This document shows positions 9,167-45,574 of a stretch of 64,000 nt of DNA, one piece after another. This DNA is from Candidatus Yanofskybacteria bacterium (GTDB taxonomy: Bacteria; Patescibacteriota; Minisyncoccia; 2-02-FULL-40-12; IGHO2-01-FULL-4-A). A program made the translations under genes and the position numbers. The stretch spans positions 259,519 through 323,518 of the forward strand of contig JACOZV010000001.1 of assembly GCA_016181175.1 (NCBI GenBank). The letters run 5' to 3'. Under the pieces are notes generated by a model that searched no databases, had not been told where the DNA came from, and saw nothing but the letters and a program-made list of their open reading frames with translations. Every line of letters begins with the position of its first letter. Position 1 is the first letter of the stretch.

Positions 9167-9471
9167 ACCCCGCACCTTTTCAGCACAATAATCACAGCAT
9201 GCACTGGTTATACATAATTAAAAGTAAGGAAAATGGAGAATTATATATCGGCAGCACAGGAAATTTAGTGAAAAGACTGGCCGAACATAATACTGGCAAA
9301 TCTAGAGCTACGACCAGATATAAACCATGGTTTTTTGTTTATATTGAAGGCTATTTTTCTAAGGATGATGCCTTGCATCGCGAACGGAATCTGAAATACT
9401 TTGGCAAAGTCTATGCCCAATTAAAAAGACGTATTAAAAATAGCCTTCAGGGTGCTGAAAAGGTGCGGGGT
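9167..9471 (+). mobile_element. Family B element carrying a GIY-YIG nuclease (20-bp perfect terminal inverted repeats, TG duplication)
   Basis: ACCCCGCACCTTTTCAGCAC (9167-9186) and its reverse complement (9452-9471); TG on both flanks. Confidence 0.8.
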
Positions 9472-9474
9472 TGA
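9199..9474 (+). CDS. Minimal GIY-YIG endonuclease
   Basis: LYIIKS..LYIGST..KRLAEHN..RERNLK; the C-terminus is encoded by the right inverted repeat. Confidence 0.9.
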   Translation: MHWLYIIKSKENGELYIGSTGNLVKRLAEHNTGKSRATTRYKPWFFVYIEGYFSKDDALHRERNLKYFGKVYAQLKRRIKNSLQGAEKVRG

Positions 9475-9548
9475 CTTTGTATTCCATTTTGATTTACTGG
9501 TTATAAATATCAAGGTTCTTTTAAATAAAATAAAAAAGGAGACAAATT

Positions 9549-10472
9549 GTGTCTGACGAAAAAAATGCCATTCCTCTCCAATCGAAAATCAAGCGGGTGA
9601 CCATTAAAACCTTGCATGACATGAAGAAAAAAAGACCGGAGCCGGAAATTATTTGTGCTTTGAGCATCTATGATTCTTTACATGCCCGGCTATTTGACAG
9701 GGCTGGCGGAGATATGATTATTGTCGGCGATTCTGTAGGTATGACTTTGCAGGGTAGAGCTAACACCCTGCCGGTAACAATGGATGAAATGGTTATGTTT
9801 ACCCAAGCTGTAAGAAGGGGCACGGATAGATTATTTGTTGTTGGTGATATGCCCTTGGGTTCGTATGAGGTTTCAAACGAAGAAGCGGTGCGTAATGCTT
9901 TGCGCTTTGTCAAAGAAGCGGGTTGTAACGCAGTGAAGGTGGAAACCAATCTTGATTACATTGACCGCATCAGAGTTATTGCCAGCGCCTGTTTGGTGGT
10001 GGCGCATATCGGTTTAAATCCCAACAAAGCCGAGATGCTTGGAGGTTACAGGACGCAAGGTAAGACAAGAGAAAGCTTTTTGGAATTAAGCAAGGTAATT
10101 GTTGAAGCTGAAAAAGCGGGTGCCTGTATAATTTTAATAGAATCGGTTACGGAAGAAATAGCCGAAATGCTAAAGTCCAAAGTTAATATTCCAGTATTTG
10201 GCATTGCCGCCGGTCGCAAGCTTGATGGCCAGCTTGTCATCAGTTCTGATTTACTTGGATTTTTCGAATGGCCGGGCAACCCCCCGATTCACTTTGAAAA
10301 ATATCTTACAGAAAGACAGGGCATTACGATCGGTGATGTTACCCTGGATGCTTTTCGCTGGTATGTCAAAGCCGTAAAGGAAAAAAGATTTCCAAGCGAC
10401 AAACATGTCCATCACATTTCAGCCGACGAGTTAAGTCAAGTGTTACAAACCAATAACAATTCATCAGCCTAA
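9549..10472 (+). CDS. panB: 3-methyl-2-oxobutanoate hydroxymethyltransferase
   Basis: YDS..A, IVGDSVGM, DMPLGSY, AVKVE, AHIGLNP, DGQLV motifs. Confidence 0.9.
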   Translation: MSDEKNAIPLQSKIKRVTIKTLHDMKKKRPEPEIICALSIYDSLHARLFDRAGGDMIIVGDSVGMTLQGRANTLPVTMDEMVMFTQAVRRGTDRLFVVGDMPLGSYEVSNEEAVRNALRFVKEAGCNAVKVETNLDYIDRIRVIASACLVVAHIGLNPNKAEMLGGYRTQGKTRESFLELSKVIVEAEKAGACIILIESVTEEIAEMLKSKVNIPVFGIAAGRKLDGQLVISSDLLGFFEWPGNPPIHFEKYLTERQGITIGDVTLDAFRWYVKAVKEKRFPSDKHVHHISADELSQVLQTNNNSSA

Positions 10473-10624
10473 GACCGTCTTAACGGTCTTTATTTTTAGC
10501 CGTGCGATTGATTTTCAGAGAATATTGTGTTATTCAATATGCAGAAAACGAGAACTTTAAAAACGTTATCATCTACCACAAGAAGGGGGATTATGCTATT
10601 TATTAGAATGAAACACAAACAGCG

Positions 10625-11368
10625 ATGGAAAAAATGAAACCAACATTAACCGTAATAATGCCGGCCTACAATGAGCTTAAAAATCTTAGGGGGGCTTTTA
10701 TAAGCGCAACCGGGGCCCTTAAAATAGCCGGTATTTCTGATTACGAAATAATAATCATAACCAACACGAAGCGTGATGGTAGCCACGACGGTACGCCGTA
10801 TGTTGCCGAACAAATCGTGAAGGAAGATTCCAGGGTTAGGCATATTCATAACAACTCTTACGTGGGCTTGGGTTTTAAATTTAGACAAGGCATTGGAGAT
10901 GCCCGGAAGAGCTTCATAACTTGGGTGCCGGGCGATAATGAAAATATTGAGGAGTCCGTTGCCGGCATCTTCAGACATATCGGCGAAGCCGATATGATTA
11001 CCAGTTATACTTCCAACACTCAAGTCAGGAAATGGAAAAGACGTTTTGTGTCCAGATGTTTTACTGAGTTTTGTAATTTGCTGTTTGGTTTGAGATTGAA
11101 GTATTACAACGGTATTTGTATTTATCCGACGAAACTACTCCAAAAAGTGCCGACGAAGTCCGATAATTTTGCATACATGGCCGAGATTATTATTTACTTG
11201 GTCAAATCCGGAGTTAGATACAAAGAGGTTCCAATGGAAATCAAACCCACTGCAATCTCATCTTCCTTTAAGTTAAAAAGTGTTTTTGAAGCTTTGGGCA
11301 CTATCGCTTTGTTATTTTGGAATATTCATTTTAAGAGGACAAGGATTAAAATTGGTTCAATAAATTAA
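10625..11368 (+). CDS. Glycosyltransferase family 2
   Basis: VIMPAYNE, DGSHDGT, PGDNEN. Confidence 0.85.
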   Translation: MEKMKPTLTVIMPAYNELKNLRGAFISATGALKIAGISDYEIIIITNTKRDGSHDGTPYVAEQIVKEDSRVRHIHNNSYVGLGFKFRQGIGDARKSFITWVPGDNENIEESVAGIFRHIGEADMITSYTSNTQVRKWKRRFVSRCFTEFCNLLFGLRLKYYNGICIYPTKLLQKVPTKSDNFAYMAEIIIYLVKSGVRYKEVPMEIKPTAISSSFKLKSVFEALGTIALLFWNIHFKRTRIKIGSIN

Positions 11369-11431
11369 ATTCAATCGGATTATATCCGATTTTTTATTGT
11401 GAAATAATTTTGCATGTGCTAAGTTGAACTT

Positions 11432-15422: not shown

Positions 15423-17927
15423 ATGAATAATAAACTTAAAATATTTTTTGTGAGAAAAAACATTACACGTTTTTTTATTTTTTTAACGCCCGTAATAATT
15501 ACACTGGTTTTAATCGGCCCTACTCTTTGGGGCGGCAAGGTGTTTTTGGATTCCGCGCATTCTACGGTTCAATATTCGGCCCTGTTTTCCCTAAAGAGTT
15601 CTCTTAATTCCGGTGTATGGTTTCCGGTTTGGATTTCCCAATGGACAAGCGGATTTTCCCTCTGGCTACTTCCGGCGAATTTCGGGCTATTAAACCCGCT
15701 CCATATTATTCTGACTAAATTTTTAGATTTTGCTTTGGCGTCCCATATTCTTACCCTTTTTTATTTTATAGCCGGATTTTATGCGGCATATTTTTTGGGC
15801 AGGGCGTTGAGTTTATCCAGGGCTGCCTCCCTTATTGTCGCTCTAGCTTATGCTTTTAACAGTTTTAATGTTTGGTGGGGGCTTCTCCTTTCCTTTTCGT
15901 TTCTCTATTTTCTTTTGCCTTTTTTGTTTTTGACGTTGCTTAAGGCTTATCGGGGTGAGCGCAAGTTTATATATTGGTCGGCCCTTTTTATTTTTTTGGC
16001 TTGGCCGTTCGCTCTGCCCCAGATATTTTTATACTCGCTTATTGCGACATTTGCTTTTGCTTTGTATTTAGACTTTGCCAAACGTACGGAAGGTTTAGTT
16101 CAGAAACGCTGGCTGGCCATTAAAAGTTTTTTTTACTTTATCATCCCCGGCACTTTTTTGGCTCTCATTTGGTTGCTTCCGGTTTATGATTTTATTCAGC
16201 TTTCTTCCAGAGCCGGAGGTCTTGCTTTAGAGGCGGCAGGAGAAGGACGGCTTCTACCTTGGGATCTCATTTTTTCATATATCTATCCGTCTTTTTCAAT
16301 GCCCAAACTTATCCGCGAACATTTTTTATATATCGGTATTTTACCTTTTGCTTTAGCCATTTTTTCTTTGGTAAATTTTAGAAAAGACCGGCTGGTTAGA
16401 TTTTTTTTCATCGGTTATATTTTTATTATCTCTGCTTTATTTCCCGGTTCGCCTGTTTGGAGATTATTTAACATTACTCCGGTGCTTAATCTTTTCCGAG
16501 TGCCCCTGCAGTTACTTTTCGTGGGAAATTTTTTCTTGGCGATACTTGCTGGATTCGGTTTAGACGGATTGTCGGAAAACAAAACAATCTCGTATCTAAG
16601 GTTTTTCAAAAATTATGTCCGGGGATTGAAAATAATGGTTATATTTGGACTTGCGACGGCAATGGTTATAGCATTGATTATGAAGTTTTACAGGTCTAAC
16701 CTGCAAAATTTCGGTTATAATTATTTTGTTGAAAACTTGTTGCAATATACAAAATACCGTCCCTTGGAGCACTACTATGCCTTAATCAACGGATATTTTG
16801 ATAAGTTTTCTTGGCACGTATCTTTTCTAAATCCATATTTTTTGACCGCACTGTTTACGTTGAGTGCGGTTTTCGCCCTATTTTATTTTTACAGTCGGGG
16901 CAAACTTACATTTAACAACTTTAAAATAATCGCCGTTATTATTACTGTTCTTGATTTACTTTTCGTTTGGCGTGGCCACTACAGATTTATGCCCAGGGAT
17001 TGGTTAGACCCGGCTCCGGCGGCGGTATTTCTGAATTCAAGGGATAAAGAACCATTTAGGATTTATGTCATTTCCGAAGGGTATTTAGAGCTGGAAAAAA
17101 TGGGCTATGATAAATACGACCTCTCTAATTACAAAAAAGATATGCTTTTTAAACGGAGCCGGATGCTTGGTTTTGGATTAAACGGCGTATCTGGCATACA
17201 AGGTGAAATAACGATGCTTGATACGCGCCGTTATGCCAAAATTATAGATCTTATTACAGATTCAGACGACGGAAGGAGAATAGAACTTTCAACCGCTGAC
17301 AGAATTAAAGCATGGCAATCTTTGCAAAACAGAAATTTGCTTTCAATGATGAATGTAAAATACATTATTTCATCCTTTGACTTTAAGATGCCATGGAAAA
17401 AGATATTTGAAACCAAACCGGTTGAGGACGAGAAAATTATGACTTATGTTTATGAAAATACCGAAGTTTTGCCTAGGGTCTATTTTGCTAATAATGCAAG
17501 TTTTGCAGAACCAGACGAGTCCAGCACCAGTTTAGCCAAGGCCAAACTGGTGCTGGACGAGGCCAAAGCTTTTGACGCGTTACTGGCTATTAAAAACTTT
17601 AAGAACACAACGCTTGTTGAATGTGCGAGCGGGGATTGCGCTTATTCGGGCCAGCCGAATTTCAAAGATAGTCTGGAAATCATTGAAAAAAAAGAAGGCT
17701 ATTTAAAAGTTAAAACGCAAACCAAAAATCCAAGATATTTAGTTTATTCGGAGTCTAATTTGCCGTATTGGGAGGCGAGGATTGATGGGAAAATGTCCCC
17801 GATTCTTATGGCAAATTACGCGTATCAGGCGGTTTTGGTTCCACCGGGGGAGCATTTAGTGGAATTTCAGTATCCCGGCCCAATTACGCAGTTTAAGTAC
17901 TCACTCAAAAAACTGCTTGATTTCTAG
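15423..17927 (+). CDS. YfhO-like polytopic membrane glycosyltransferase (GT-C)
   Basis: Many TM helices; C-terminal W.A.IDG..ANYAYQAV.VP.GEH.VEF.Y motif. Confidence 0.8.
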   Translation: MNNKLKIFFVRKNITRFFIFLTPVIITLVLIGPTLWGGKVFLDSAHSTVQYSALFSLKSSLNSGVWFPVWISQWTSGFSLWLLPANFGLLNPLHIILTKFLDFALASHILTLFYFIAGFYAAYFLGRALSLSRAASLIVALAYAFNSFNVWWGLLLSFSFLYFLLPFLFLTLLKAYRGERKFIYWSALFIFLAWPFALPQIFLYSLIATFAFALYLDFAKRTEGLVQKRWLAIKSFFYFIIPGTFLALIWLLPVYDFIQLSSRAGGLALEAAGEGRLLPWDLIFSYIYPSFSMPKLIREHFLYIGILPFALAIFSLVNFRKDRLVRFFFIGYIFIISALFPGSPVWRLFNITPVLNLFRVPLQLLFVGNFFLAILAGFGLDGLSENKTISYLRFFKNYVRGLKIMVIFGLATAMVIALIMKFYRSNLQNFGYNYFVENLLQYTKYRPLEHYYALINGYFDKFSWHVSFLNPYFLTALFTLSAVFALFYFYSRGKLTFNNFKIIAVIITVLDLLFVWRGHYRFMPRDWLDPAPAAVFLNSRDKEPFRIYVISEGYLELEKMGYDKYDLSNYKKDMLFKRSRMLGFGLNGVSGIQGEITMLDTRRYAKIIDLITDSDDGRRIELSTADRIKAWQSLQNRNLLSMMNVKYIISSFDFKMPWKKIFETKPVEDEKIMTYVYENTEVLPRVYFANNASFAEPDESSTSLAKAKLVLDEAKAFDALLAIKNFKNTTLVECASGDCAYSGQPNFKDSLEIIEKKEGYLKVKTQTKNPRYLVYSESNLPYWEARIDGKMSPILMANYAYQAVLVPPGEHLVEFQYPGPITQFKYSLKKLLDF
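17519..17558. mobile_element. Family D 40-bp palindrome inserted in frame, with GA duplication
   Basis: GTCCAGCACCAGTTT/AAACTGGTGCTGGAC; GA on both sides; net +42 nt; related copy in secD. Confidence 0.75.
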
Positions 17928-17928
17928 T

Positions 17929-18099
17929 TCTAAAAGCTTGGCAAATACTGCCTTCTATCACCGCTAGCAACCCCAGCGAGATTGCGTCGCTCCGTTGAAA
18001 GCGTGGATTCGCCTCGCAGTTCAACCATTATACTGCTCGGTGACCGTGCAATCCACCCTTTCAACGGTGCTATAAAGCAGTATTTGCCAAGCTTTTAGA
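17929..18099 (+). repeat. Family E element (E4) with 23-bp perfect outer inverted repeat
   Basis: TCTAAAAGCTTGGCAAATACTGC and reverse complement; CTATCACC..CCAGCGA..ACCGTGC..ACGGTGCTAT core. Confidence 0.85.
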
Positions 18100-30381: not shown

Positions 30382-30382
30382 C

Positions 30383-31345: not shown

Positions 31346-31349
31346 AAAA

Positions 31350-34212: not shown

Positions 34213-34237
34213 TTTTTTCAAAATTGGGAGGATAAAT

Positions 34238-35407: not shown

Positions 35408-35449
35408 ATGGCAAAGAAAAAGAAGGCAAAGAAGAAGAAGAGAATATAA
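35408..35449 (+). CDS. Putative 13-aa lysine-rich peptide MAKKKKAKKKKRI
   Basis: TGnTATAAT at 35245-35253, AGGAGG at 35331 separated from the ATG by a hairpin, terminator at 35477-35501. Confidence 0.45.
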   Translation: MAKKKKAKKKKRI

Positions 35450-35476
35450 GCTTCTTCGCGCCGGAAGGCGTACTCC

Positions 35477-35501
35477 GAAAACCCCGCGTTGCGGGGTTTT
35501 C
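35477..35501 (+). terminator. Intrinsic terminator
   Basis: GAAAACCCCGC/GCGGGGTTTTC hairpin. Confidence 0.65.
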
Positions 35502-35529
35502 AATTTGTTTATTTTGTGATAAATTATAG

Positions 35530-35692
35530 GGGCTTAGCGAATAATACCTTCTATCACCATTTGTCGCCCCAGCGAGGCGACTGCATTCCGTCAAAAATAT
35601 TAATTTTGATTTTGTTGAAGAAATATTGTAACAAAATCAAACCATGCAATTAACACTTTTGACGGTGCTATAAGGTATTATTCGCTAAGCCC
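35530..35692 (+). repeat. Family E element (E5) with 21-bp perfect outer inverted repeat, 8 nt before hpf
   Basis: GGGCTTAGCGAATAATACCTT and reverse complement; GTCGCC-CCAGCGA-GGCGAC hairpin. Confidence 0.85.
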
Positions 35693-35700
35693 GTTCATAT

Positions 35701-36036
35701 ATGCGTACAATGATTCATACTAAAAACCTGGAGCTGACTCCGTCAATAGAAATTTTTGTTAAACAAAAGATGGATACGATTGCCAAGCTTTTTAAGCCAG
35801 GTGAACAATTAACCGAGGCGCGTATTGAAATTGGTAAGCCCTCTAGTCATCACCAAAAAGGCCCGGTTTATTATGCCGAGATTAACCTCAAAATAGGCGG
35901 CAAGTTATTGAGAGCTACTACCGAACACGTGGATCTTCGAACCGCCATTGACTTTGCTAGGGACGAAGTTGAACGTCAAATCAAAAAATTTAAATCTAAA
36001 ATTAGAGATACACAGAGGATTCCAAAACGGTCATGA
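35701..36036 (+). CDS. hpf: Ribosome hibernation promoting factor (RaiA/HPF)
   Basis: KNLELTP, AEINL..G, DL..AID.A.D..ERQI.K.K; directly upstream of secA. Confidence 0.85.
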   Translation: MRTMIHTKNLELTPSIEIFVKQKMDTIAKLFKPGEQLTEARIEIGKPSSHHQKGPVYYAEINLKIGGKLLRATTEHVDLRTAIDFARDEVERQIKKFKSKIRDTQRIPKRS

Positions 36037-38768
36037 ATTTATTATCCAAAATATTCGGTGATGCCAATCAGCGGACAGTTGATAGTTACAAGCCGATTGT
36101 CCAGAAAATAAACGAGCTCGAACCGACGTTCGAGCGTTTTTCATTTGATGAACTTCGGAGCAAGACAACTGAATTTAAACAACGGCTTGCTGGTGGTGAA
36201 TCACCAGATGACATATTGCCTGACGCCTTTGCTATGGTCCGTGAAGCATCCAAGCGCACGCTTGGCCAGAGGCACTTTGATGTTCAGCTGATGGGTGGCG
36301 TAGCGCTTCATCAAGGTAAAATTTCTGAAATGAAAACCGGTGAAGGCAAGACTTTGGTCGCAACTCTGCCAGCCTATCTCAATGCGCTTACTGGGCGCGG
36401 TGTCCACATAGTAACCGTTAACGATTATCTTTCACGACGCGATGCGGTTTGGATGGGTCAAATATATCACTTGCTTGGATTAACTGTGGGATGTATTAAC
36501 CACGAATCATCTTTTGTATACGATCCGCTACATAGTGAAATTCAAAATGATAATTTAAAATTTAAAAGTGAAAAGGAAAATGAAAAATCAGAAAAGTTAG
36601 ATGAAATACGCGATACAACCGGTTCATTTCGGGTTGTGCATGAATTCTTAAGACCGGTTACAAGACAAGAGGCTTACGAGGCGGACATAACCTATGGTAC
36701 CAACAATGAATTCGGTTTTGATTATCTGCGTGACAATATGGCTTATGAGCTGGTGCAAATTGCACAAACTAAATCCCACAATTACGCAATAGTAGACGAG
36801 ATTGATTCCATTTTGATAGATGAAGCGCGCACTCCACTCATTATTTCCGCGCCAGACTCCGATTCAACCAAACTTTACGAAACTTTTGCCAAAATCGTTC
36901 CGCGTCTTCATGAAAACGAAGATTACAATGTTGATGAAAAATTAAAGGCCGTGTCAATTACCGAGAAAGGTATTGAAAAAGTTGAAGGCATGCTTAACTT
37001 AAAAAATATTTACGAAGAAGGCGGTACTCGCTATGTCCACCACCTTGAGCAAGCGTTAAAGGCGGAAATACTTTTTCACCGCGACAAAGACTACGTTGTT
37101 AAAGATGGAGAAGTTATTATAGTTGATGAGTTTACGGGGCGTTTGATGCCGGGCCGACGCTGGTCGGAGGGATTGCATCAGGCCGTGGAGGCTAAGGAGG
37201 GCGTTTACGTGCAGAAAGAATCGCGCACATTTGCCACGATTACTTTTCAAAATTATTTTCGTTTGTACAAAAAACTGGCAGGCATGACCGGTACGGCGCA
37301 GACATCTGCTGAAGAATTCCACAAAGTTTACAAACTTGATGTTGTTTCAATTCCGACAAATAAACAAATGGTTCGTAACGATTTACCCGATCGCATTTAC
37401 AAAACTGAAGCCGGCAAATTAAGGGCGATTGTCGCTGAAATCAAAGATCGTCATTTGAGGGGTCAACCGGTGCTTGTCGGCACCGCGGCGATTACCAAGA
37501 ATGAACTTTTATCGGTTCATCTCAATCGGGAAGGTATTCCGCATAAAGTATTAAATGCTAAAAATCACGAGCAGGAAGGTGAAATCATTGCTCAAGCTGG
37601 TCGTCCGGGTGCCGTAACGGTAGCGACCAATATGGCGGGAAGGGGAGTTGATATTATTCTTGGCGGCAATCCGCTAGACACAGAAGAAGCAATCAGGGTT
37701 CGCGAATATGGTGGTTTGCACGTTATGGGCACTGAGAGACACGAGGCGAGACGGATTGACAACCAATTGCGCGGGCGCGCTGGTCGTCAAGGCGATCCCG
37801 GTTCCTCACAATTTTTTGTATCCACCGAAGATGAATTAGTGCGCATATTCGGCGGTGACCGTTTAAAGAACCTCATGGATCGCTTGGGAGTGGGCGAGGA
37901 TGATGTTATTGAAAACCGATTTATTTCACGCGCTATTGAACAAGCGCAATCCAAGATTGAGGGCAACAACTTTGACATAAGAAAATACGTCTTAGAATAT
38001 GACGATGTAATGAATAAGCACAGAACAGCGATTTATGGATTGCGCAACGATATACTTAGATCGGCTAATACCAGAGAAAAAACACTAGATTATGTCCACA
38101 ATCAAATTGATAAAATTTTGCAATTCCATACAAGTGTCACTTCGGAATCTTTTAGTGAGGGATGGAATATTGAAGAAATTGCCGAAAACATCAAAACTAT
38201 TATACCCATTGAAAATGACCTGCACGGCAAGTTAAAAGAAATTTCAACCACAAAGGACCCGAACCAATTATCAGAATTTTCTCACAAAATAATTGATGAT
38301 GCCTATGCTGCACGTGAAAAGCAGGTTGGTGTTGAAGCAATGAGGCATCTTGAAAAAATGGTTTTACTACGTGTGATTGACGAATTGTGGGTTGACCATC
38401 TTGAGCAAATGGAATATCTGCGTGATTCGGTGCGTTTACGCGCCTACGGTCAGCGTGACCCGTTGGTTGAGTATAAAATAGAAGGCCAGAAAATGTTCAA
38501 CCAATTGCAAGAGGCAATCGGCGCGCAAGTCGCCGGCATGATTTTTAAAGTAGGATTTGTTCACCCCGAACGAAGCCGTAAGGGAACGCAGCATGCTCTT
38601 GCTTCATCTGGAGTTCAGAAATCGAATGCTATGGTAATTGAAGAAAAGCGTCGCAATGATCAAGAACAAAGTCGGTTGGCAAATGTTCATGACCATAATA
38701 AAATAGGCAGGAATGATCCCTGCCCTTGCGGGTCTGGTAAAAAATATAAGAAGTGTCATGGAAAGTGA
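36033..38768 (+). CDS. secA: Preprotein translocase ATPase SecA
   Basis: EMKTGEGKT, VTVNDYL, DEIDSILIDEARTPLIIS, QLRGRAGRQGDPG, SEC-C GRNDPCPCGSGKKYKKCHG. Confidence 0.98.
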   Translation: MNLLSKIFGDANQRTVDSYKPIVQKINELEPTFERFSFDELRSKTTEFKQRLAGGESPDDILPDAFAMVREASKRTLGQRHFDVQLMGGVALHQGKISEMKTGEGKTLVATLPAYLNALTGRGVHIVTVNDYLSRRDAVWMGQIYHLLGLTVGCINHESSFVYDPLHSEIQNDNLKFKSEKENEKSEKLDEIRDTTGSFRVVHEFLRPVTRQEAYEADITYGTNNEFGFDYLRDNMAYELVQIAQTKSHNYAIVDEIDSILIDEARTPLIISAPDSDSTKLYETFAKIVPRLHENEDYNVDEKLKAVSITEKGIEKVEGMLNLKNIYEEGGTRYVHHLEQALKAEILFHRDKDYVVKDGEVIIVDEFTGRLMPGRRWSEGLHQAVEAKEGVYVQKESRTFATITFQNYFRLYKKLAGMTGTAQTSAEEFHKVYKLDVVSIPTNKQMVRNDLPDRIYKTEAGKLRAIVAEIKDRHLRGQPVLVGTAAITKNELLSVHLNREGIPHKVLNAKNHEQEGEIIAQAGRPGAVTVATNMAGRGVDIILGGNPLDTEEAIRVREYGGLHVMGTERHEARRIDNQLRGRAGRQGDPGSSQFFVSTEDELVRIFGGDRLKNLMDRLGVGEDDVIENRFISRAIEQAQSKIEGNNFDIRKYVLEYDDVMNKHRTAIYGLRNDILRSANTREKTLDYVHNQIDKILQFHTSVTSESFSEGWNIEEIAENIKTIIPIENDLHGKLKEISTTKDPNQLSEFSHKIIDDAYAAREKQVGVEAMRHLEKMVLLRVIDELWVDHLEQMEYLRDSVRLRAYGQRDPLVEYKIEGQKMFNQLQEAIGAQVAGMIFKVGFVHPERSRKGTQHALASSGVQKSNAMVIEEKRRNDQEQSRLANVHDHNKIGRNDPCPCGSGKKYKKCHGK

Positions 38769-38810
38769 GGATAAAAAACCGTTGGTTGGACCAACGGGTG
38801 ACAAAAAAAT

Positions 38811-39107
38811 TTACTCTCTAATTGGGCAGACAATTCTAGTTTCTTTGCCATTATTTTTAATGTGCCTATCTTGAGGATTTTGGAGGTCAATTGCCGATTT
38901 GCAGTTGGGGCAAGTCTTCAGATTGTTCGGGTAAACAAATTGCCCGCATTCCGTACACCATTCCACAATAGTGCCATTGCGCTTTATTCCATAGCGGAAA
39001 GGAGAATTGCCGCAGAGCGGATGGAAGCGTCCTTTGTTGGGGCACAGGTCTTTAATTCCTAAGCTGCGTGCATCTTCCTCAAGCTCACTAAGCATTTTAG
39101 ACCTCAC
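38811..39107 (-). CDS. Small Cys-rich hypothetical protein (Zn ribbon)
   Basis: CTECG, CPNCK; GTG start. Confidence 0.5.
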   Translation of the reverse strand: MRSKMLSELEEDARSLGIKDLCPNKGRFHPLCGNSPFRYGIKRNGTIVEWCTECGQFVYPNNLKTCPNCKSAIDLQNPQDRHIKNNGKETRIVCPIRE

Positions 39108-39161
39108 CTGATTTTAAGCCGCTTTCATGTTTAAAATTAACTGTTAATATTAATAGAGTCA

Positions 39162-39235
39162 ACCCCGTTAGAAGTCTCGCTCGTGCCTAATGGCACGAGT
39201 CCGAAGGACATCGGCGAGGCCACTTCTAACGGGGT
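39162..39235. mobile_element. Family C palindromic element (C1) with CA duplication
   Basis: ACCCCGTTAGAAGT/ACTTCTAACGGGGT; CA on both flanks; internal hairpins. Confidence 0.8.
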
Positions 39236-39276
39236 CAACCCGTCCCCACTTGGAAAGCATTTGCTTTTTATCTTTC

Positions 39277-39720
39277 ATGAAAAACAAAAATAAAATTATT
39301 ATAGTCGTGTCAGGCGGTATGGATCCGCTTCATCCGGGCCACATACGTCTTTTCCAGGAAGCCAAGAAGTTGGGCGATGAGCTTGTTGTCATTCTAAATA
39401 ACGACAACTGGTTGAAAAAGAAAAAAGGTTACGTGTTTATGTCTGAAAAAGAACGCAAGGAAGTCATTGAGGCAATCAAGGGGGTTGATCGGGTAATTCT
39501 TACTAAACATTCGTCTAAGACGTTAGATATGAGTGTGCGTGCCGAACTGAAAAAAATTCGGCCCCACATTTTTGCAAACGGCGGCGACAGAAACGAAGGT
39601 AATATTCCAGAAATTGCTGTTTGCAAAAAAATAGGATGCAAGGTGGTTTTTAATGTCGGACGAGGAGGCAAAATCGCTTCAAGTTCTAAACTTGTTGCCG
39701 GCTTTGCAAAAGAAAGTTAA
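39277..39720 (+). CDS. Cytidylyltransferase-family nucleotidyltransferase
   Basis: SGGMDPLHPGH (HxGH), ANGGDR, K..SSS; likely start MKNK. Confidence 0.85.
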   Translation: MKNKNKIIIVVSGGMDPLHPGHIRLFQEAKKLGDELVVILNNDNWLKKKKGYVFMSEKERKEVIEAIKGVDRVILTKHSSKTLDMSVRAELKKIRPHIFANGGDRNEGNIPEIAVCKKIGCKVVFNVGRGGKIASSSKLVAGFAKES

Positions 39721-39726
39721 TAATGA

Positions 39727-39849
39727 ATCCCGAACGAGACAGCTAATTTTTACCTTGCTAAATAATTGCCGTGTTATTAGTTGTCATTTATGGCGGGATT
39801 ACTTATAATCAACGGAAATGCATAAAGCATTTCCTGTCTCGTACGGGAT
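39727..39849 (+). mobile_element. Family A non-autonomous element (A3) at a start codon
   Basis: Same 16-bp inverted repeats as A1; GA duplication; supplies the ATG at 39848. Confidence 0.85.
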
Positions 39850-40408
39850 GAATATTCAAAAAGTAATTTCGGAGACGAGAGATATATTTCTCAAGTCGGA
39901 CGTGTCTTTACCGCTTTTGCTTAAAATAAAAACCACCGAGCTGGTTTTGAATCTTATGGCCCATCAAAAAAATTTTGGTCTTTTTATAATACTTGGCTGG
40001 CAGGATAAATGGCAGGAATATACGGATATTTCTGATGCCGCTCAGGATATTTTTGTTGCTCACCGCATAAACCTGAACGATATAGAAAATCACTCTGATT
40101 GGTATCTTGAGGTGGAGTCTACGGTTGGTTTTGACGGTGCTATCCTGATAGATGGTAACGGCGTGATACAACACTCCGGCGTTATATTGGAAGGTTTGCG
40201 TCCCCGAATGGTTGCCGACGCGATAAATCCGGGTCAGTTCAAGGACTTGTCAGAACAGTTTGGTTTCAAGCAAAAAGTCCATTCAAGACATCTTTTTGCC
40301 ATTACTTCTTCTCATGTTTTTAAAAATACCGCCGTTTTTACTGTTTCTGAAGAGAACAACACTTTCCACATTTTTGAAGCCGGAAAGATTGTTTACTCAA
40401 CAGACTGA
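39848..40408 (+). CDS. Stand-alone DAC/DisA_N (diadenylate cyclase-like) domain protein
   Basis: FDGAILIDG.G, SRHLFA (RHR-like), FTVSEE. Confidence 0.7.
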   Translation: MNIQKVISETRDIFLKSDVSLPLLLKIKTTELVLNLMAHQKNFGLFIILGWQDKWQEYTDISDAAQDIFVAHRINLNDIENHSDWYLEVESTVGFDGAILIDGNGVIQHSGVILEGLRPRMVADAINPGQFKDLSEQFGFKQKVHSRHLFAITSSHVFKNTAVFTVSEENNTFHIFEAGKIVYSTD

Positions 40409-40794
40409 TGCAATTTAAACCTCCTAAAAACGACGATAAATACCAGTGGACTAACCATGTTAAAGGCAAGATGGTTTATTACGGGATTTCTGAAAGTTTA
40501 ATAAAACGTATAACTAGATTTCCTAAACGTAAAGAAGTTGGCATTGCGACCAATACCGTTGCAGTTATGCAGTCGACTAGCAACAAGAATAAACCGCAAG
40601 AAGTGTGGGTGATGTTTCAACCCGTGGGTTCTGGACGCACAAGTAACAATAAGTCACCGGTTTTTGATTTCAAGCAAAATAAGATAAGAATAATTTCCGC
40701 GTGGCGTTACCCCGGCGTAAGTCCGGTTGGCAAAACCGTACCCATACCCGATGAAATTTTACAGGAACTTAGCAATTTGATAGAGTTGGCTTAA
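40408..40794 (+). CDS. Conserved hypothetical protein
   Basis: [19 protein letters not shown]; translationally coupled to its neighbour. Confidence 0.65.
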
Positions 40795-40795
40795 C

Positions 40796-41476
40796 ATGAA
40801 AATTTTAGTTTTACTTTTCGCAATAGCGGTCGTAGCCCTTGGTGGTTATTTTGCCATGAAGAAAGGTGGTGGCGTCAATGTAAGCGCATCGCCAGAGCCG
40901 TCACCGACACCGACTGCTCCTGTAGACATTCAGTCACAAGAACCATTGCCAGATGTAGTCAAAGCCATACTGGTAACCGCTCGCGGCAATATTGAGCTTG
41001 AACTTTACCAGAAAGTGGCGCCCAAAACCGTTGCTAACTTTGTAAAATTAGCCGCATCGGGTTTCTACGATGGCACCAAGTTTCATCGGGTCATTGACGA
41101 TTTTATGATACAAGGGGGCGATCCATTATCTAAAACTGACGATCCTCGCGTGGGCACAGGCGGGCCCGGTTATCAATTTGAAGACGAAATTAACCTCAAA
41201 TCACTTGGCGCTCCGGATGAACTAATTGCCCAATATGAAGCGCAAGGTTATAAATATAGCAACATCCTTCAGTCATTGCCTGTGGATCCGGGTTACATTG
41301 CCATGGCTAATGCCGGACCTAATACCAATGGCAGTCAGTTTTTTATCGTGACAACTAAACCCCAACAACATCTCTATGGCAAACACACGGTATTTGGCAA
41401 AGTGGTTAAGGGAATGGATGTGGTGTTAAAAATCAAACAGGGAGATTTATTAAAGAAGGCAGTTGTTAATTTTTAA
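40796..41476 (+). CDS. Membrane-anchored cyclophilin-type peptidyl-prolyl isomerase
   Basis: [44 protein letters not shown]. Confidence 0.95.
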
Positions 41477-41525
41477 ACATTGATATTTATTTAAAAATTA
41501 AAAATTGGAAATTAAAAATTCTTGA

Positions 41526-42233
41526 ATGTCGTTTGTAAGAACCTCAAAACTACTAAAAATATCCCGCGCCAATATTCAGCTGATGAAAGAATGTCCGCGC
41601 TGTTTTTGGTTATACAAGCATAAGGGTATCGGTCGGCCGCAGGGCTATCCGTACACGCTTTCAATAGCAGTAGACCAGTTGCTTAAGCATGAGTTTGACG
41701 AGTATCGGGAGAGGGGAGAGATGCACCCGGTTTTAGTTGGATTTGATGGGCTGGCGGAAGCTCATCTTTTTTCTGACCAAGGACAGCTTCAAAAGTGGCG
41801 CAATAATTTTGAAGGACTTAAATACCACGACGAGGGTCTGGATGCCACGCTTTTCGGTGCGGTTGACGATATGTTGGAGTTTTCCGATGGTTCGCTTGCG
41901 GTGATAGATTATAAATCTTCAGGTGCCAAGGAAATATCCGTTTATGATGATTACAAAATGCAGATGGATGTCTATACGTATATTTTGGAACAACTCGGTT
42001 ATAAGACTGCCCGAAAAGGGTATTTCGTATTTTTTCAGGTAGACAAAACAGACGGTTTTAGAGGGCGTTTGCCGTTTCGTGGTGAAATACGTGATGTGGA
42101 TGCTGATCCAAGCTATATTTATGATCTTTTTGCTAAGGCCGTTACCTTGGCTCGTTCAGACAATCCACCTCCGTCTCATGCCGAGTGTCAATATTGTATG
42201 TATGCGGAGCACCATAAACATATAAATGAATAA
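41526..42233 (+). CDS. PD-(D/E)XK nuclease family protein
   Basis: CPRC, GAVDD..IDYKS, QM.VY, C-terminal C..C. Confidence 0.85.
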   Translation: MSFVRTSKLLKISRANIQLMKECPRCFWLYKHKGIGRPQGYPYTLSIAVDQLLKHEFDEYRERGEMHPVLVGFDGLAEAHLFSDQGQLQKWRNNFEGLKYHDEGLDATLFGAVDDMLEFSDGSLAVIDYKSSGAKEISVYDDYKMQMDVYTYILEQLGYKTARKGYFVFFQVDKTDGFRGRLPFRGEIRDVDADPSYIYDLFAKAVTLARSDNPPPSHAECQYCMYAEHHKHINE

Positions 42234-43689
42234 AATGGTTGATAAAAAACCAAAACTTACCGGCGAACATTTTTATAAATTTTTCCAATGTCCGCATTGG
42301 ATTTGGTATGATATCTATGCCGATCAAACCAAAAAGGGTGGAATTCCTCCTCTGATAGAGATGATTCACCGGGGCGGTCTCAAGCATGAAAAAGAAATGA
42401 TCCAGACGCGCAAGTTTGAAGAAATAAAGCCGGAACTTTTTCGCGATCTTGATGAAGCTTTTTTGTCTACGCTTGAGCTGATGAAACAAGGGAAAAATAT
42501 CTACCACGGTGTGTTGATGGATCAGAATTGGGTTGGCATTCCGGACCTGCTTGAAGCGCGGCCAGTGGAGAAAGGAATGAAATCTAACTTTGGTGACCAT
42601 TACTATGTTGTATATGATGTTAAAACCGGCAAAGAAATGCGTGACGAATACAAATTCCAGCTGGTTTTCTACAGTTTAATTTTGGAACGACTGCAGGGGG
42701 TTTTGCCGCGCGATGCTTTTATCGTCAACTCTGACGGCGAGGAGCGTTCATTCATGGTTGATGACTTTCTTGACTATTTTCACTTGACCAGGGAGAGAAT
42801 TGAACGAGTTTTGGCCGGCGAAAAACCGCCACCATTTCTTAAAAGTGGCTGCAAGCAATCGCCATGGTATTCACTTTGTGTTGATGAGACAAAGGGTTGC
42901 GACGATGTCTCGTTGATTTACAGGTTGAGCCAGAACGACCAACGGCGTTTTTATGAACTTGGTATACATAGCGTAAAAGATTTGGCTTCAGCCGATTTGG
43001 ATAACTTACGTTCGCGGCTTGAAGACTGGCCGTTTGATAAAATCCTGCGTTTTTATAATCAGGCCCAAGTACTGGTTTCAAACGAGCCAAAAGTTCTCAA
43101 GAAAAGCGAGTTTCCTCAAGTAGAAAACGAAATATATTTTGATATTGAATCTGATCCAACGGAGGGCATCGATTATCTTTTTGGGATGCTCATAAAAAGC
43201 GGAAACAAAAAACCCGAATACAAATATTTTTTGGCACAGGATAAAAAGGACGAGGAAAGGGTGTGGCGTGATTTTTTGGATTTTCTCGAATCTCTTAATG
43301 ACTTTGTCATTTATCACTATTCTTATTACGAAAGAGAAGTTTTTAAGCGTTTGGGCAATGAATATGGTATTTCAGTGGCGCTTGAAGATAAGTTCAAAAA
43401 TAATACAATTGATTTACACTGGAAATTTATTGAAGCAGCAGTTTTGCCAATTTATTTTTACAGCCTAAAAGATGTTGCCAAGTATCTTGGCTTCAAATGG
43501 CAGGCCGATGACGCTGGCGGAGCAGAATCGGTGGTTTGGTACAATGATTGGTTGCAGAAGCATGACCAAAAAATCATGGACAAAATCATCAAATATAATG
43601 AGGACGATGTAAAAGCTACACTGTTTCTCAAGGAGTGGTTGGATAAACAAAAACCCCGAACAAGCAAGGAGCGACTGCCGGAAGACTAG
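42226..43689 (+). CDS. TM0106-family RecB-like nuclease with RNase H-like C-terminal domain
   Basis: G.PDLL..YDVK..QL.FY, YFDIE, YSLK.VA..LGF.W, YNEDDV.AT. Confidence 0.85.
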   Translation: MNKMVDKKPKLTGEHFYKFFQCPHWIWYDIYADQTKKGGIPPLIEMIHRGGLKHEKEMIQTRKFEEIKPELFRDLDEAFLSTLELMKQGKNIYHGVLMDQNWVGIPDLLEARPVEKGMKSNFGDHYYVVYDVKTGKEMRDEYKFQLVFYSLILERLQGVLPRDAFIVNSDGEERSFMVDDFLDYFHLTRERIERVLAGEKPPPFLKSGCKQSPWYSLCVDETKGCDDVSLIYRLSQNDQRRFYELGIHSVKDLASADLDNLRSRLEDWPFDKILRFYNQAQVLVSNEPKVLKKSEFPQVENEIYFDIESDPTEGIDYLFGMLIKSGNKKPEYKYFLAQDKKDEERVWRDFLDFLESLNDFVIYHYSYYEREVFKRLGNEYGISVALEDKFKNNTIDLHWKFIEAAVLPIYFYSLKDVAKYLGFKWQADDAGGAESVVWYNDWLQKHDQKIMDKIIKYNEDDVKATLFLKEWLDKQKPRTSKERLPED

Positions 43690-43778
43690 TGTTTATATTA
43701 AAACAAGAAAAAAATCAGCTTATGCTGATTTTTTGGTGACTTGATTTTTAAATAATAGTATTTTACTATCAAATTTAA

Positions 43779-43892
43779 TCCCGTTAGAAGTCGCCCTAAC
43801 GGGTTCGCGGTCATAATTAGCAAATAATTTAAAGTCTTATTGTTTAGCCGTAACTTATGTATAAGGCTACACAGTAGCGACTTCTAACGGGA
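43779..43892. mobile_element. Family C palindromic element (C2), 3 nt before the secD start
   Basis: 16-bp inverted repeat TCCCGTTAGAAGTCGC/GCGACTTCTAACGGGA. Confidence 0.75.
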
Positions 43893-43895
43893 CAA

Positions 43896-45287
43896 GTGTT
43901 ACGTAGATTTACTCCATTGATAATTTTAGCCGTTGCTCTGTTTTTGGGCGTTTTTGCTTATCCTCAAGGTTGGGATATGGGCGCGGACATAGTAAATTCA
44001 AAACTCAAAATCCAAAATTCAAAATATAAGATTCCACGTATGTTTAAAATTCCGCCATTTCGTCTTGGTCTTGACCTGTTGGGCGGTACCCACTTAGTTT
44101 ATCAAGCCGATTTGTCTGGAACCGAGGGTCAAAGCGCTGGTGACGCTATGTCTGGTGTGCGTGACGTTATCGAGCGCAGAGTTAATCTTTTTGGCGTTGC
44201 AGAACCGTTGGTGCAAATTGAAGGCAACGATCGTCTTGTGGTGGAATTGGCCGGCATCAAAGATGTAAATCAGGCAATACAGATGATTGGTCAGACGCCA
44301 TTTTTGGAATTCAAAGAAGAACGTCCGTCAGAAGAGTCGCAAAAAATTATTGAAGCCCAACAAAAAGGTTCATCCAGCACCAGTTTGGACAGCCCCGAAC
44401 TGGTGCTGGACAAGCAACAGTTTGAAGATCCGTATTTTAAGCCAACCGGTTTAACCGGTCGATATCTTAAGCGTTCCCAATTGACATTTGATCAGACAAC
44501 ATCACAACCGGAGGTTTCGCTGGAATTAAACGACGACGGAGCAAAATTATTTGCTGAAATTACAAAGCGAAATATTGGGAAGCGTGTTGCAATTTATGTT
44601 GACGGCGTGGGCATAAGCGCACCGACGGTTCAAAGCGAAATTCCAAGCGGTCGTGCCGTGATCAGTGGCAGTTTTTCCATAAAAGAAGCCAGGGATTTAG
44701 TTAACAATCTTAATGCCGGGGCACTGCCGGTACCGATAAATTTAATTTCACAACAGACGGTGGGCCCTTCTTTGGGGCAGGAATCACTGCAAAAATCATT
44801 GACGGCCGGCTTATACGGATTGCTTGCGGTAGCCATTTTCATGATATTGTTTTACCGTTTGCCCGGCCTTGTGTCAGTTGTCGCTTTGTTGGTGTATGTT
44901 GCAATTGTTCTGACTGTCTATAAAGTAATTCCGGTAACGCTGACTTTGGCCGGAATAGCAGGTTTTATATTGTCTTTGGGTATGGCTGTGGATGCCAATA
45001 TTTTGATTTTTGCCAGAATGCGCGAAGAGTTAAAGGCTGGCAATTCTTTAGCACAGTCATTTGCAAGCGGTTTCCACCGAGCTTGGTACTCAATCCGTGA
45101 CAGTCACGTTACAACTTTGCTCGGCGCTTTTGTGCTGTATGCTTTTTCAACATCTGTGGTTAGGGGATTTGCTTTGACGCTTGGAATCGGAGTTTTGGCA
45201 AGTTTGTTTACGGCCATTGTTATTACTAAATCATTTTTAAGGTTGTTTATTGGACACAAAATGGAGAAAACAAAGTGGATGTTTTAA
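43896..45287 (+). CDS. secD: Protein translocase subunit SecD
   Basis: LGLDLLGG, IERRVNLFGVAEP, GALPVP, GMAVDANILIF.R. Confidence 0.97.
   Translation: MLRRFTPLIILAVALFLGVFAYPQGWDMGADIVNSKLKIQNSKYKIPRMFKIPPFRLGLDLLGGTHLVYQADLSGTEGQSAGDAMSGVRDVIERRVNLFGVAEPLVQIEGNDRLVVELAGIKDVNQAIQMIGQTPFLEFKEERPSEESQKIIEAQQKGSSSTSLDSPELVLDKQQFEDPYFKPTGLTGRYLKRSQLTFDQTTSQPEVSLELNDDGAKLFAEITKRNIGKRVAIYVDGVGISAPTVQSEIPSGRAVISGSFSIKEARDLVNNLNAGALPVPINLISQQTVGPSLGQESLQKSLTAGLYGLLAVAIFMILFYRLPGLVSVVALLVYVAIVLTVYKVIPVTLTLAGIAGFILSLGMAVDANILIFARMREELKAGNSLAQSFASGFHRAWYSIRDSHVTTLLGAFVLYAFSTSVVRGFALTLGIGVLASLFTAIVITKSFLRLFIGHKMEKTKWMF
44373..44410. mobile_element. Family D palindrome in frame within secD
   Basis: TCCAGCACCAGTTTGG/CCGAACTGGTGCTGGA encoding SSTSLDSPELVLD. 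Confidence 0.7.
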
Positions 45288-45289
45288 AT

Positions 45290-45574
45290 ATGAATCCCAA
45301 ACGAGACAGCAAAACCATGTTTTATACATATGTTTTAAGAAATAAAAAAAGCCGCTTTTATGTTGGTTTTACTTATGATTTACGGAAACGCTTCAATGAA
45401 CATAATAATAAAAAATCAACTTATACAAAATATCGTGGCCCATACGAACTTATTTACTATGAAGCTTGTCTTGATGAGAATGACGCTCGTTAAAGAGAAA
45501 AGTATTTTAAATCTGGAACAGGTAAACGCTACTTCAAAAACAGATTGAAGCGTTTCCTGTCTCGTACTGGATGA
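45290..45574 (+). pseudogene. GIY-YIG endonuclease with a single in-frame TAA (45491-45493)
   Basis: FYTYVL..FYVGFT.DLRKR..EHN..DAR*REKYFKSG..FLSRTG*; terminal TGA overlaps the secF ATG. Confidence 0.85.
45294..45572 (+). mobile_element. Family A element carrying a GIY-YIG nuclease (A4) between secD and secF
   Basis: ATCCCAAACGAGACAG ... CTGTCTCGTACTGGAT; GA duplication; supplies the secF ATG. Confidence 0.85.

Follow-up and report, generated by a model that had tools for sequence, protein, structure and literature searches.

To our knowledge, bacterial transposons are mobilised by DDE, HUH, serine, tyrosine, DEDD or Cas1 enzymes, and the GIY-YIG enzymes are known to us for hydrolysing DNA, with no joining step that we know of. 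I-TevI, a member of this class, leaves a 2-nt 3' overhang. The nearest published system is Ssn/SRM (cd10448), in which the NTS-ssnA-NTS arrangement, according to its authors, resembles an insertion sequence (Chenal et al. 2025, PMC11893778, accessible text). The Slx1/UPF0213 (YhbQ-type) nucleases are described, in the accessible part of PMC1564403, as passed on mostly by vertical descent, with a predicted role in repair, and not as mobile-element genes. GIY-YIG inserts in CPR rRNA have been judged to lie outside homing, in a paper whose accessible text has no occurrence of 'inverted repeats' and proposes no element structure (PMC11270868). In the literature searched, we found no description as a system of the class reported here, namely elements of ~275-320 bp that on balance appear to be very small DNA transposons of CPR/Patescibacteria, with an Slx1-type GIY-YIG nuclease as their only gene and with gene-less derivatives that retain the arms.

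The window, by which we mean the whole 64-kb stretch of DNA analysed, contains the ten short elements of four arm types (A to D) listed in the original prediction. Paired arms ending in RYCCMG, the junction it had described, bound nine of the ten, A2 having a single arm only, and its limits hold for seven elements, B2, C2 and D2 each being one base longer on either side. B1 (9167-9471, plus strand; strands are given where assigned) is full-length, with 305 bp and perfect 20-bp arms, and lies ahead of panB within a TTGAC box that it rebuilds, between two copies of TG (9165-9166 and 9472-9473). Its nuclease gene (9199-9474, plus strand) is intact and encodes a single-domain protein of 91 aa, PF01541 (E 5.7e-19) being the only domain; the final codons lie within the right arm, and the TGA consists of the duplicated TG and a host A. 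A promoter-like site of this gene, TTGACC and AATAAT with 17 nt between them (9164-9192, plus strand), spans the left junction and, as a candidate promoter, matches the consensus at 10 of 12 positions; five of the seven B-type copies displayed have a TTGACC followed, at a distance of 16-18 nt, by a -10-like hexamer. A4 (45294-45572, plus strand; full-length, 279 bp, GA duplicated) sits on the start codon of secF, and its end provides the secF ATG (45571), overlapping the nuclease TGA. The original claim of nuclease-only A and B copies stands for B1 and needs amending for A4, whose 85-codon GIY-YIG gene (45317-45574, plus strand) is broken by an in-frame TAA (45491-45493, codon 59); since A4 is covered, with no differing letter, by a contig of another run, this stop is not an assembly error.

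The end of the gene-less A1 (22561-22691, plus strand; 131 bp) provides the ATG (22690) of a PF03706 gene, and its left flank is a remnant of an earlier element end; A3 (39727-39849, plus strand; gene-less, 123 bp) likewise supplies an ATG at 39848. A2 (30283-30381, minus strand) is a truncated, unpaired arm whose junction gives a minus-strand ATG to a sugar transferase gene. C1 (39162-39235; gene-less, 74 bp) has TTGAC at both junctions on the minus strand, and C2 (43778-43893, plus strand; gene-less, 116 bp, flanks TA and AA) lies two bases ahead of the secD start codon. In frame within protein genes are B2 (24937-25003; gene-less, 67 bp, flanks TG and AA; O-antigen-ligase/TPR gene) and two 40-bp hairpins that each make up 14 in-frame codons, D1 (17519-17558; 834-aa ORF) and D2 (44372-44411, flanks TC and AA; SecD). 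The six exact 2-nt duplications noted originally are all present (GA at A1, A3, A4 and D1, TG at B1, CA at C1), and in six of six the element's last two bases equal the two bases preceding the left copy; in B2, C2 and D2 the arms are paired but the dinucleotide differs between the sides. As had been proposed, host signals are rebuilt at the junctions, be it an ATG (A1, A2, A3 and A4) or a TTGAC box (B1). The elements contain no recombinase-class, DDE or HUH gene, their full-length copies holding only GIY-YIG, and no intron family was found in the window.

That these are mobile insertions is borne out by empty orthologous sites, with the congener G006 lacking seven of the ten window elements at the orthologous site. 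D1 and D2 each add exactly 42 bp in frame: the D1 site in G006 is exactly 42 bp shorter and has a single GA, and the D2 insert is missing from SecD of 29 of 29 relatives. A4 is also missing in 29 of 29 relatives, the secD-secF gap being 286 nt here versus 2-124 nt there. In G006, the B1 site has one TTGACT and no element, A3 is absent, and A2 is absent with the start codon aligned with the junction; C2 was not seen there nor, by eye, upstream of secD in the relatives displayed. The left flank of A1 has no homologue in G006, with no arm visible in the 130 nt displayed upstream of the orthologue, the B2 locus there has a 34-nt linker and is not a clean empty site, and the C1 locus, where G006 is not collinear, fell outside the comparison. 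Across the 50 orthologous sites located, a projected gap of exactly -2 was the commonest value (12 sites). The elements insert, adding their own length plus 2 bp.

In the 776-kb genome as a whole there are 67 paired-arm elements, compared with 0, 1, 0, 0 and 0 in five block shuffles, A- plus C-type arms accounting for 50 of the 67. Flanking dinucleotides are identical in 43 of the 67 (permutation mean 7.3, maximum 19 in 20,000), and across 151 elements the duplication is limited to two positions (identity 0.65 and 0.72; shuffled 0.30 and 0.34). As a rule, the 2-bp duplication of the original prediction has to be qualified: it is exact in 81 of 138 copies, with non-identical dinucleotides in the other 57 (~40%), and a tRNA-targeting lineage has, by inspection, repeats of 3-5 nt instead. 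Within the non-identical class, 24 of 57 differ at both positions and arm decay is no greater than in other copies, an outcome that plain fill-in does not predict; six similar 52-bp copies have four different dinucleotides between them, matched on both sides in five of the six.

The target is a symmetric Y-NN-R site, like the joined ends of the element itself. This resemblance speaks for a homing-like route in which the nuclease drives spread without being a transposase, nicking or cutting element-free look-alike sites at which host repair copies in the hairpin by template switching over a few homologous bases. So do two near-identical full-length copies in the relative G003 (277 bp, 3 nt apart, in different pilin genes; a sign of recent copying), which have 10 bases of left flank in common beyond the arm, and sites at which two congeners have different elements, for example one of 73 bp here where G006 has a full-length one of 282 bp. 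Flank likeness to the element ends beyond ~3 bases on each side is, however, at the level of shuffled pairs, far too little for ordinary homologous recombination, the sites lie in unrelated genes, and the GIY-YIG inserts of CPR rRNA were judged to be something other than homing (PMC11270868, accessible text); we regard this route as rather unlikely.

Within ORFs, length plus two is divisible by three in 19 of 20 elements. The interiors of gene-less copies hold no remnant of the nuclease gene, so that these copies are not simple deletion products. As single strands, the elements fold strongly (z -2.9 to -8.8 versus mononucleotide shuffles), a fold that inverted repeats alone would give, and by inspection copies are located in stable-RNA genes, one arm-bounded copy of this genome lying in 23S rRNA-like sequence (rRNA identity by inspection). 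Strong folding, such locations and the one PF00078 reverse-transcriptase gene of the genome would suit spread through an RNA copy, with reverse transcriptase acting in trans and GIY-YIG used as in Penelope-like elements; set against the precise paired ends, the lack of tails or of a one-sided truncation series in a census with two strong unpaired A arms, and the absence of a reverse-transcriptase gene from every element, we find this scarcely credible.

The full-length form contained, as predicted, nothing but a GIY-YIG gene at 14 of 14 metagenome loci found by the A-arm pair pattern (12 distinct sequences), and full-length partners with this gene only exist for all four arm types. Short GIY-YIG genes, when searched for flanking arms as the original prediction had proposed, had them at 87 of 187 copies versus 1 of 300 random sites; of the 27 homologues in a phylum-wide sample, 17 had no arms, as had 30 of the 56 in the 80-100 bit class. 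Median dN/dS was 0.08 (76 pairs) and 0.13 (32 pairs), ~0.1 overall, with downstream genes visibly different, and the nuclease is under purifying selection while at unrelated sites. Although A- and C-type elements predominate here, an intact A/C-clade nuclease is missing from this genome, a point against the transposon reading. In comparisons with a fold model, Slx1 chains took 10 of the first 12 Foldseek ranks, and the UPF0213 proteins 1zg2 and 1ywl were the only PDB sequence matches; the fold is a minimal Slx1-like one with conserved Tyr, Gly, Tyr, His and Glu. The analogy with I-TevI originally drawn did not hold up, since I-TevI ranked 13 by structure (E 0.07), Slx1 being far better, and TIGR01453 scored 22.8 against a cut-off of 56. 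A predicted B1 homodimer scored 0.63 (best of three controls 0.00), passing a mark that 20 of the 30 solved pairs and 1 of the 23 single chains attained, with runs agreeing in at least 97% of contacts at pLDDT of at least 85; a resemblance to Slx1 structures already solved may account for this pass.

Arm type tracks the lineage of the nuclease, as had been expected, with 38 changes on the protein tree versus 88.4 when shuffled and 0 of 200 shuffles as low (72 columns, quick search, kin not independent, 9 of 13 A rows collected by arm pattern). Mantel rho is 0.38 (null maximum 0.16; 59 dereplicated copies), the A4 gene falls in the A-arm clade (SH-aLRT 98), and arm sharing is little greater for same-genome pairs than for others (0.49 vs 0.44). 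Arms and nuclease evolve together. This tracking of the nuclease rather than of the host genome, with full-length copies of five arm types within one genome, counts against a reading with integration at a 2-nt core by an enzyme of the host, a large serine recombinase being the most plausible candidate, and with GIY-YIG as cargo that aids persistence. Inverted arms around a 2-nt core are indeed the geometry of serine recombinases, which exchange across such a core, the genome has four large serine-recombinase genes and one tyrosine recombinase, and non-identical dinucleotides with a net +2 insertion make up seven of the 12 sites with a gap of -2. The targets have only 4-6 bases in common, however, and the arms do not bracket those genes, the nearest element lying at least 2 kb from each serine-recombinase match; we consider this reading improbable. 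Convergent same-type arm pairs were found around none of the genome's recombinase, reverse-transcriptase or Y1 genes, and the four DDE profiles searched (PF01609, PF13358, PF00665 and PF12762) had no match in the genome. The joined-end core that a circular intermediate would have was not among the joints listed (15 of 138), these coming from contigs along a stretch that does not include B1. Within the tests run, nothing appeared of what the original prediction had named as speaking against it, namely a lack of empty sites, arms without a link to GIY-YIG, or arms around a DDE or HUH gene.

Purifying selection would also be expected if the nuclease served the cell as an Ssn-like host system, for example by trimming incoming ssDNA at hairpins, with another enzyme, such as a Y1, spreading the hairpins. 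The homologous fold, a profile match to SRM-flanked proteins (98.6%, 65 columns) and the one PF01797 (Y1 transposase-like) gene in the genome agree with this, but that gene has no enclosing arm pair and stands beside a different palindrome family, SRM is at chance, and the nuclease genes occupy unrelated, lineage-specific sites with target duplications, which Y1 enzymes are not known to make. We hold this to be highly improbable. Membership of Ssn itself was rejected, the SRM motif having two matches in the genome versus 0-3 in 10 shuffles, and no match lying within 300 nt of the small GIY-YIG genes collected up to that stage. Also rejected was a shared clade with Ssn-type proteins, holding B1 and A4 with five SRM-flanked viral-contig proteins and three sisters (p-AU 2.6e-5; 30 rows, LG+G4, with proxies in place of SsnA and the group named after the larger tree was seen).

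From these sequence comparisons, we judge it likely that spread depends on the nuclease in one way or another, and we lean towards the nuclease being the enzyme that recognises the ends and mobilises the element. A possible chemistry, tentative in its exact stagger-and-seal form, is that a symmetric nuclease dimer would bind its own arm sequence, as ssDNA hairpin or extruded cruciform, and cut both junctions and a look-alike target with a 2-nt stagger, after which host polymerase and ligase would close the gaps, usually duplicating NN and sometimes leaving a foreign dinucleotide on one side. The element end, by mimicking its target, would rebuild a start codon, a -35 box, a tRNA 5' end or a prepilin cleavage motif, so that the host would survive and the site stay open to another hit. 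Doubtful to a similar degree is the idea that the 85-91-residue GIY-YIG dimer might itself be the transposase or recombinase, cutting and rejoining across the 2-nt core. On this novel and speculative reading, a donor dinucleotide would sometimes be carried to the new site, and the ~280-bp units might be transposons of a new catalytic class, probably the smallest that are autonomous; lineages would then specialise on start codons, -35 boxes, tRNA 5' ends or prepilin cleavage sites via signal-rebuilding ends.

If mobilisation by the nuclease is right, a widespread element with only a 90-residue GIY-YIG protein would extend the known catalytic classes by one, offer a function for thousands of small 'hypothetical' nucleases, and account for the in-frame palindromes, the shifted start codons and the non-intron rRNA inserts of CPR genomes. 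It would also allow a test of whether the Ssn/SRM repeats have their origin in a mobile element. With an intact gene, perfect arms, a putative junction promoter and a known empty site, B1 is ready for assay, and its small size, together with end recognition specific to the lineage, could make such an enzyme a useful tool.

Of the known systems, Ssn has in common with these elements a single-domain GIY-YIG protein of ~90 aa, flanking inverted repeats that also recur gene-free, and covariation of protein and repeat (PMC11893778, accessible text). There, each flank forms a tagged hairpin of its own (20-50 nt), upstream of which the enzyme cuts ssDNA, and mobility is a hypothesis (PMC11893778, accessible text), whereas here a single arm pair surrounds the gene, with duplications and empty sites. 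REP/RAYT and TIRtron/TIRYT likewise place one small nuclease gene between dispersed inverted repeats, but their enzymes are HUH tyrosine transposases, unlike the GIY-YIG enzyme with 2-bp duplication described here, and 'GIY' does not occur in the accessible main text of PMC3733652, from which this comparison is drawn. Slx1/UPF0213 proteins are closest to the nuclease in fold and sequence; unlike homing endonucleases such as I-TevI, which are modular proteins, usually intron-borne, with one long conserved target, it has no DNA-binding extension, no intron and many unrelated targets. No mobilising gene is known for the Rickettsia palindromic elements, whereas every arm type here has a full-length partner. 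They too are short palindromes in frame in protein genes, as are 19 of 20 here (they are mentioned in the accessible text of PMC3733652). The GIY-YIG ORFs in non-intron inserts of CPR rRNA (PMC11270868, accessible text) are probably the same elements at rRNA sites. On a conservative reading, the elements are a variant of the IS plus MITE pairing known from DDE enzymes (for example IS630, with its 2-bp TA duplication), with which they have inverted repeats, duplication, autonomous and gene-less copies and a putative junction promoter in common; unlike DDE insertion sequences (0.8-2 kb; PMC3733652, accessible text), they measure ~280 bp, their dinucleotide varies, and their end mimics and rebuilds the target.

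The elements are real, mobile and widespread in the CPR, and a candidate role of the GIY-YIG enzyme in moving them is strongly indicated. All ten elements that the original prediction placed in the window (A1-A4, B1, B2, C1, C2, D1 and D2, lettered by arm type) were found in its sequence; their terminal inverted repeats, or arms, pair in nine of the ten, A2 having a single arm. The six proposed 2-nt duplications proved exact, and in all six the last two bases of the element are the two bases preceding the target; the arms of B2, C2 and D2 are good and their flanking dinucleotides unequal. With respect to the two copies thought to hold a nuclease and nothing else, B1 (9167..9471) carries an intact gene (9199..9474) for a 91-aa GIY-YIG protein, whose closest named homologue is a Patescibacteria record at 69% identity, whereas the gene in A4 (45294..45572, on the secF start codon) is broken by an in-frame TAA at codon 59, a stop confirmed by a contig from another run that spans A4 with zero differences. 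A search for the repeats throughout the genome (776 kb, 7 contigs, rated 100% complete), anchored two bases inward of the termini, which left both termini and flanks unselected, recovered 67 paired elements as against 0-1 in five shuffles; the flanking dinucleotides are identical in 43 of these (permutation mean 7.3, maximum 19).

The elements are insertions. Empty orthologous sites were found in the congener G006, where contigs C1 and C2 (361 kb of about 900 kb) were compared and B1, D1, A2, A3, C2, D2 and A4 are missing; the D1 site there is exactly 42 bp shorter with a single GA, the B2 position is a 34-nt linker, and the A1 left flank and C1 region have no comparable sequence. At A4, the secD-secF gap is 286 nt long here, compared with 2-124 nt in 29/29 relatives, many of which have the short length expected after removing A4 and one GA, while D2 is a 42-bp in-frame insert missing from the SecD genes of 29/29 relatives. 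When elements of the two genomes were projected onto each other, 50 sites were located (29/67 and 21/32), and the projected gap was exactly -2 at 12 of the 50, the commonest value; since automatic projection is rough in intergenic DNA, exact -2 values alone were counted. For elements within long ORFs, length plus two is divisible by three in 19/20. Certain sites are occupied by one element here and by another in G006, and end-to-end stacking also occurs, as expected if every insertion rebuilds its target. Contigs of four runs were also aligned to window positions 26600-46500 at 85% likeness, an alignment dominated by other organisms, and two of the runs have small shares that say nothing about habitat; precise-excision or joined-end joints numbered 0 among the 15 of 138 joints listed, in contigs, which lose rare variants.

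Insertion adds two base pairs: for 151 distinct elements drawn from all the DNA collected, identity of the direct repeats is high at two positions only (0.65 and 0.72, against 0.30 and 0.34 shuffled), the positions neighbouring the dinucleotide lying about 0.1 above shuffle. The host bases bordering the dinucleotide are complementary in 61%, and the target is therefore symmetric, T-NN-A or C-NN-G, resembling the joint of the element's two ends. A duplication of 4 bp, ATGN, was rejected: where the second arm base is informative, 53 cases preserve the pairing of the arms and 0 preserve the direct repeat; a T-NN-A 4-bp reading is disfavoured by the first arm base (7 against 3 for the 2-bp reading, 73 uninformative). 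Six similar 52-bp copies show four different dinucleotides, matching on both sides in 5/6, so the dinucleotide is as a rule a copy of the target's. Among the 138 elements with 2-nt geometry (13 tRNA-type rows excluded), the two dinucleotides agree in 81, disagree at a single base in 33 and at both bases in 24, and the arms of these three classes pair at 0.92, 0.91 and 0.95, respectively; the 12 sites with a gap of exactly -2 include 7 mismatched ones. Mismatch classes with well-paired arms count against a pure fill-in model. The 24 double mismatches with intact arms, together with a CAAG core recurring at 15/302 junctions, suggest carry-over of the dinucleotide from the donor, the congeners being too diverged to tell its host side; adjacent deletions and drift explain some of the mismatched cases.

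The idea that insertion restores host signals could be followed across the 67 elements, of which 23 provide a start codon, 6 are located in a TTGAC box, 20 fall within ORFs and 18 are unclassified. RTG-R-A junctions open a gene in 20/29 cases, compared with 36% expected (p 3e-4) from start plus non-start intergenic sites of the same sequence with rough ORF calls; these start-site counts come from a simple ORF caller, and targeting and survival are not fully separable in them. Of the full-length copies of the A type and of the further AC and Ax types, 23/28 have an open start (ATG or GTG) at their right end, in visibly different genes. The left junction of B1 forms a promoter-like site for its own gene, as in 5/7 of the B-type copies displayed. 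In the congener G003, three adjacent pilin-like genes (L433, contig C27, 2236-5644) each contain a full-length 277-bp element, in frame in the leader at a Gly-Phe-Thr motif that is rebuilt, so that translation would yield the nuclease as a leader peptide. Two of these copies differ by 3 nt and their flanks are unrelated except for 10 adjoining bases. Spread by homing-like repair is an unlikely, if still credible, route for such elements.

By inspection, further lineages occupy the 5' ends of tRNAs, where the repeats are 3-5 nt long, and also lie within what we take to be rRNA, RNase P and tmRNA genes. At five loci of relatives (L337, L363, L405, L379 and L415) the arm stem lies within sequence that is presumably RNase P RNA-, tmRNA- or 16S rRNA-like, where it apparently replaces a native helix. 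Three intact, arm-bounded GIY-YIG genes of the genome under study occupy sites resembling, by inspection, 23S rRNA (L002, C3:111591-111901), the start of ribosomal protein L32 (L005, C1:119882-120198) and a tRNA 5' end (L007, C4:8220-8515).

The nuclease is tied to the arms. PF01541 matches eight frames in the genome: one is long and UvrC-like, two lack arms, and five are short, arm-flanked genes (B1, A4 and three beyond the window). Among the GIY-YIG ORFs collected, 87/187 copies have an arm score of at least 12, as against 1/300 random sites, and the share falls with profile-match class from 54/64 in the best through 26/56 and 4/31 to 3/36, the profile having been built from arm-bearing copies. 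A mixed-lineage alignment proved too diverse for seeding collection scans. In a phylum-wide sample arms flank 10/27 homologues and thus mark only part of the GIY-YIG family; small clades without arms (L121, L039-L054) occupy separate branches, and one Bacteroidota record has four tandem arm-less copies between tRNA-like sequences. Conversely, searching metagenomes for A-arm pairs at a fixed spacing of 230-260 nt, a pattern to which larger elements with other genes are undetectable, returned a GIY-YIG gene in 14/14 loci. Full-length partners exist for the A (L087, L324, L332), B (L107, L336), C (L361, L073) and D (L381) families, and the proposed pairing of nuclease lineage with repeat is borne out by co-evolution: arm type changes 38 times on the protein tree, compared with 88.4 when shuffled (0/200 as low), on a quick tree of few columns built from the first 72 residues with codons inside the arm excluded. 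The A clade has support 98, A and C types falling within one larger clade, and proteins that are more alike also have more similar arms (rho 0.38, null maximum 0.16), a correlation to which shared genome adds little. The genome has no intact A/C-clade nuclease, yet A/C-type arms on 50/67 elements; G006 has two such nucleases.

The nuclease is under selection, with median dN/dS of 0.08 and 0.13 and internal stops in 4/87 arm-bearing copies. No NCBIfam family scored above cut-off, and the predicted structure (pLDDT 83.7) matches Slx1 best, with I-TevI 13th. Structure prediction supports a homodimer (0.63 against 0.00 for the best control, the mark being reached by 20/30 solved pairs and 1/23 single chains; contacts agreeing in at least 97%, pLDDT at least 85), with a putative interface that takes in residues 50, 57 and 78, each of which is invariant among the aligned sequences; part of this score may come from resemblance to Slx1 structures already solved. 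We regard a dimeric nuclease as probably the mobilising enzyme: a symmetric dimer would bind its own arms and make cuts staggered by 2 nt at the element junctions and at the target, which host enzymes would seal.

Other enzymes were surveyed in the same genome, which gave no match to the four DDE-type transposase families searched and encodes one Y1 enzyme, one tyrosine recombinase, four large serine recombinases and one reverse transcriptase (330 aa; L427, C3, 2429-3421). No Y1, tyrosine or serine recombinase or reverse transcriptase gene lies between convergent same-type arms here; mobilisation by a host serine recombinase is improbable, and an RNA route hardly credible. Deletion as the origin of gene-less copies was rejected because their interiors show no protein or DNA remnant of the gene; these interiors fold well. 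Viral contigs gave no match to the AC-arm pair pattern or the A-clade protein, and plasmids one weak match (40% identity), so no vehicle was seen in these searches, which do not establish its absence.

Several other repeats were noted. A Y1/RAYT-like gene (L432, C6:40068-40772) adjoins its own palindrome family, distinct from the GIY-YIG elements and with 29 matches in the genome. Nested hairpins of about 140-170 bp make up a fifth dispersed family (window 7130-7335, 17929-18099, 28019-28167 and 35530-35692), with an inner arm beginning CCGT and 16 arm matches in the genome, and a dispersed inverted repeat with a CCCAAAAGGCA core (5505-5692 and 7071-7394) has 8 genomic matches and, in G006, a copy that lies upstream of secD. 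A perfect 50-bp direct repeat (52398-52447 and 52488-52537, 90 bp apart) is one end of tRNA-Lys (52488-52561, minus strand) and resembles an attachment-site scar. Tandem TTACCAG heptamers (25013-25043 and 47688-47770; 6 triple runs in the genome) include one run translated within an O-antigen-ligase gene directly after B2, and a 57-nt direct repeat (27467-27523 and 27934-27990, 89%) lies at the ends of two neighbouring unannotated ORFs.

The nearest described system is Ssn/SRM, which, in the portion of the source available (PMC11893778), likewise couples a very small GIY-YIG gene to its cognate inverted repeats. Membership was rejected, SRM, its motif, occurring in the genome at chance level and a shared clade being rejected with proxy sequences rather than SsnA itself; an Ssn-like host function is quite improbable. 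GIY-YIG ORFs are known from non-intron rRNA inserts of CPR, in an account whose accessible part leaves inverted repeats unmentioned (PMC11270868), and prokaryotic Slx1-like domains were taken, in the part seen of another, as mostly vertical (PMC1564403). TIRtrons are analogous HUH-based elements, GIY-YIG being unmentioned in the accessible part of their description (PMC3733652), and we found no description of a GIY-YIG-only transposon in the openly accessible literature. Compared with an IS and its MITEs, the architecture is the same, but the enzyme here is a GIY-YIG nuclease, outside the known transposase types.
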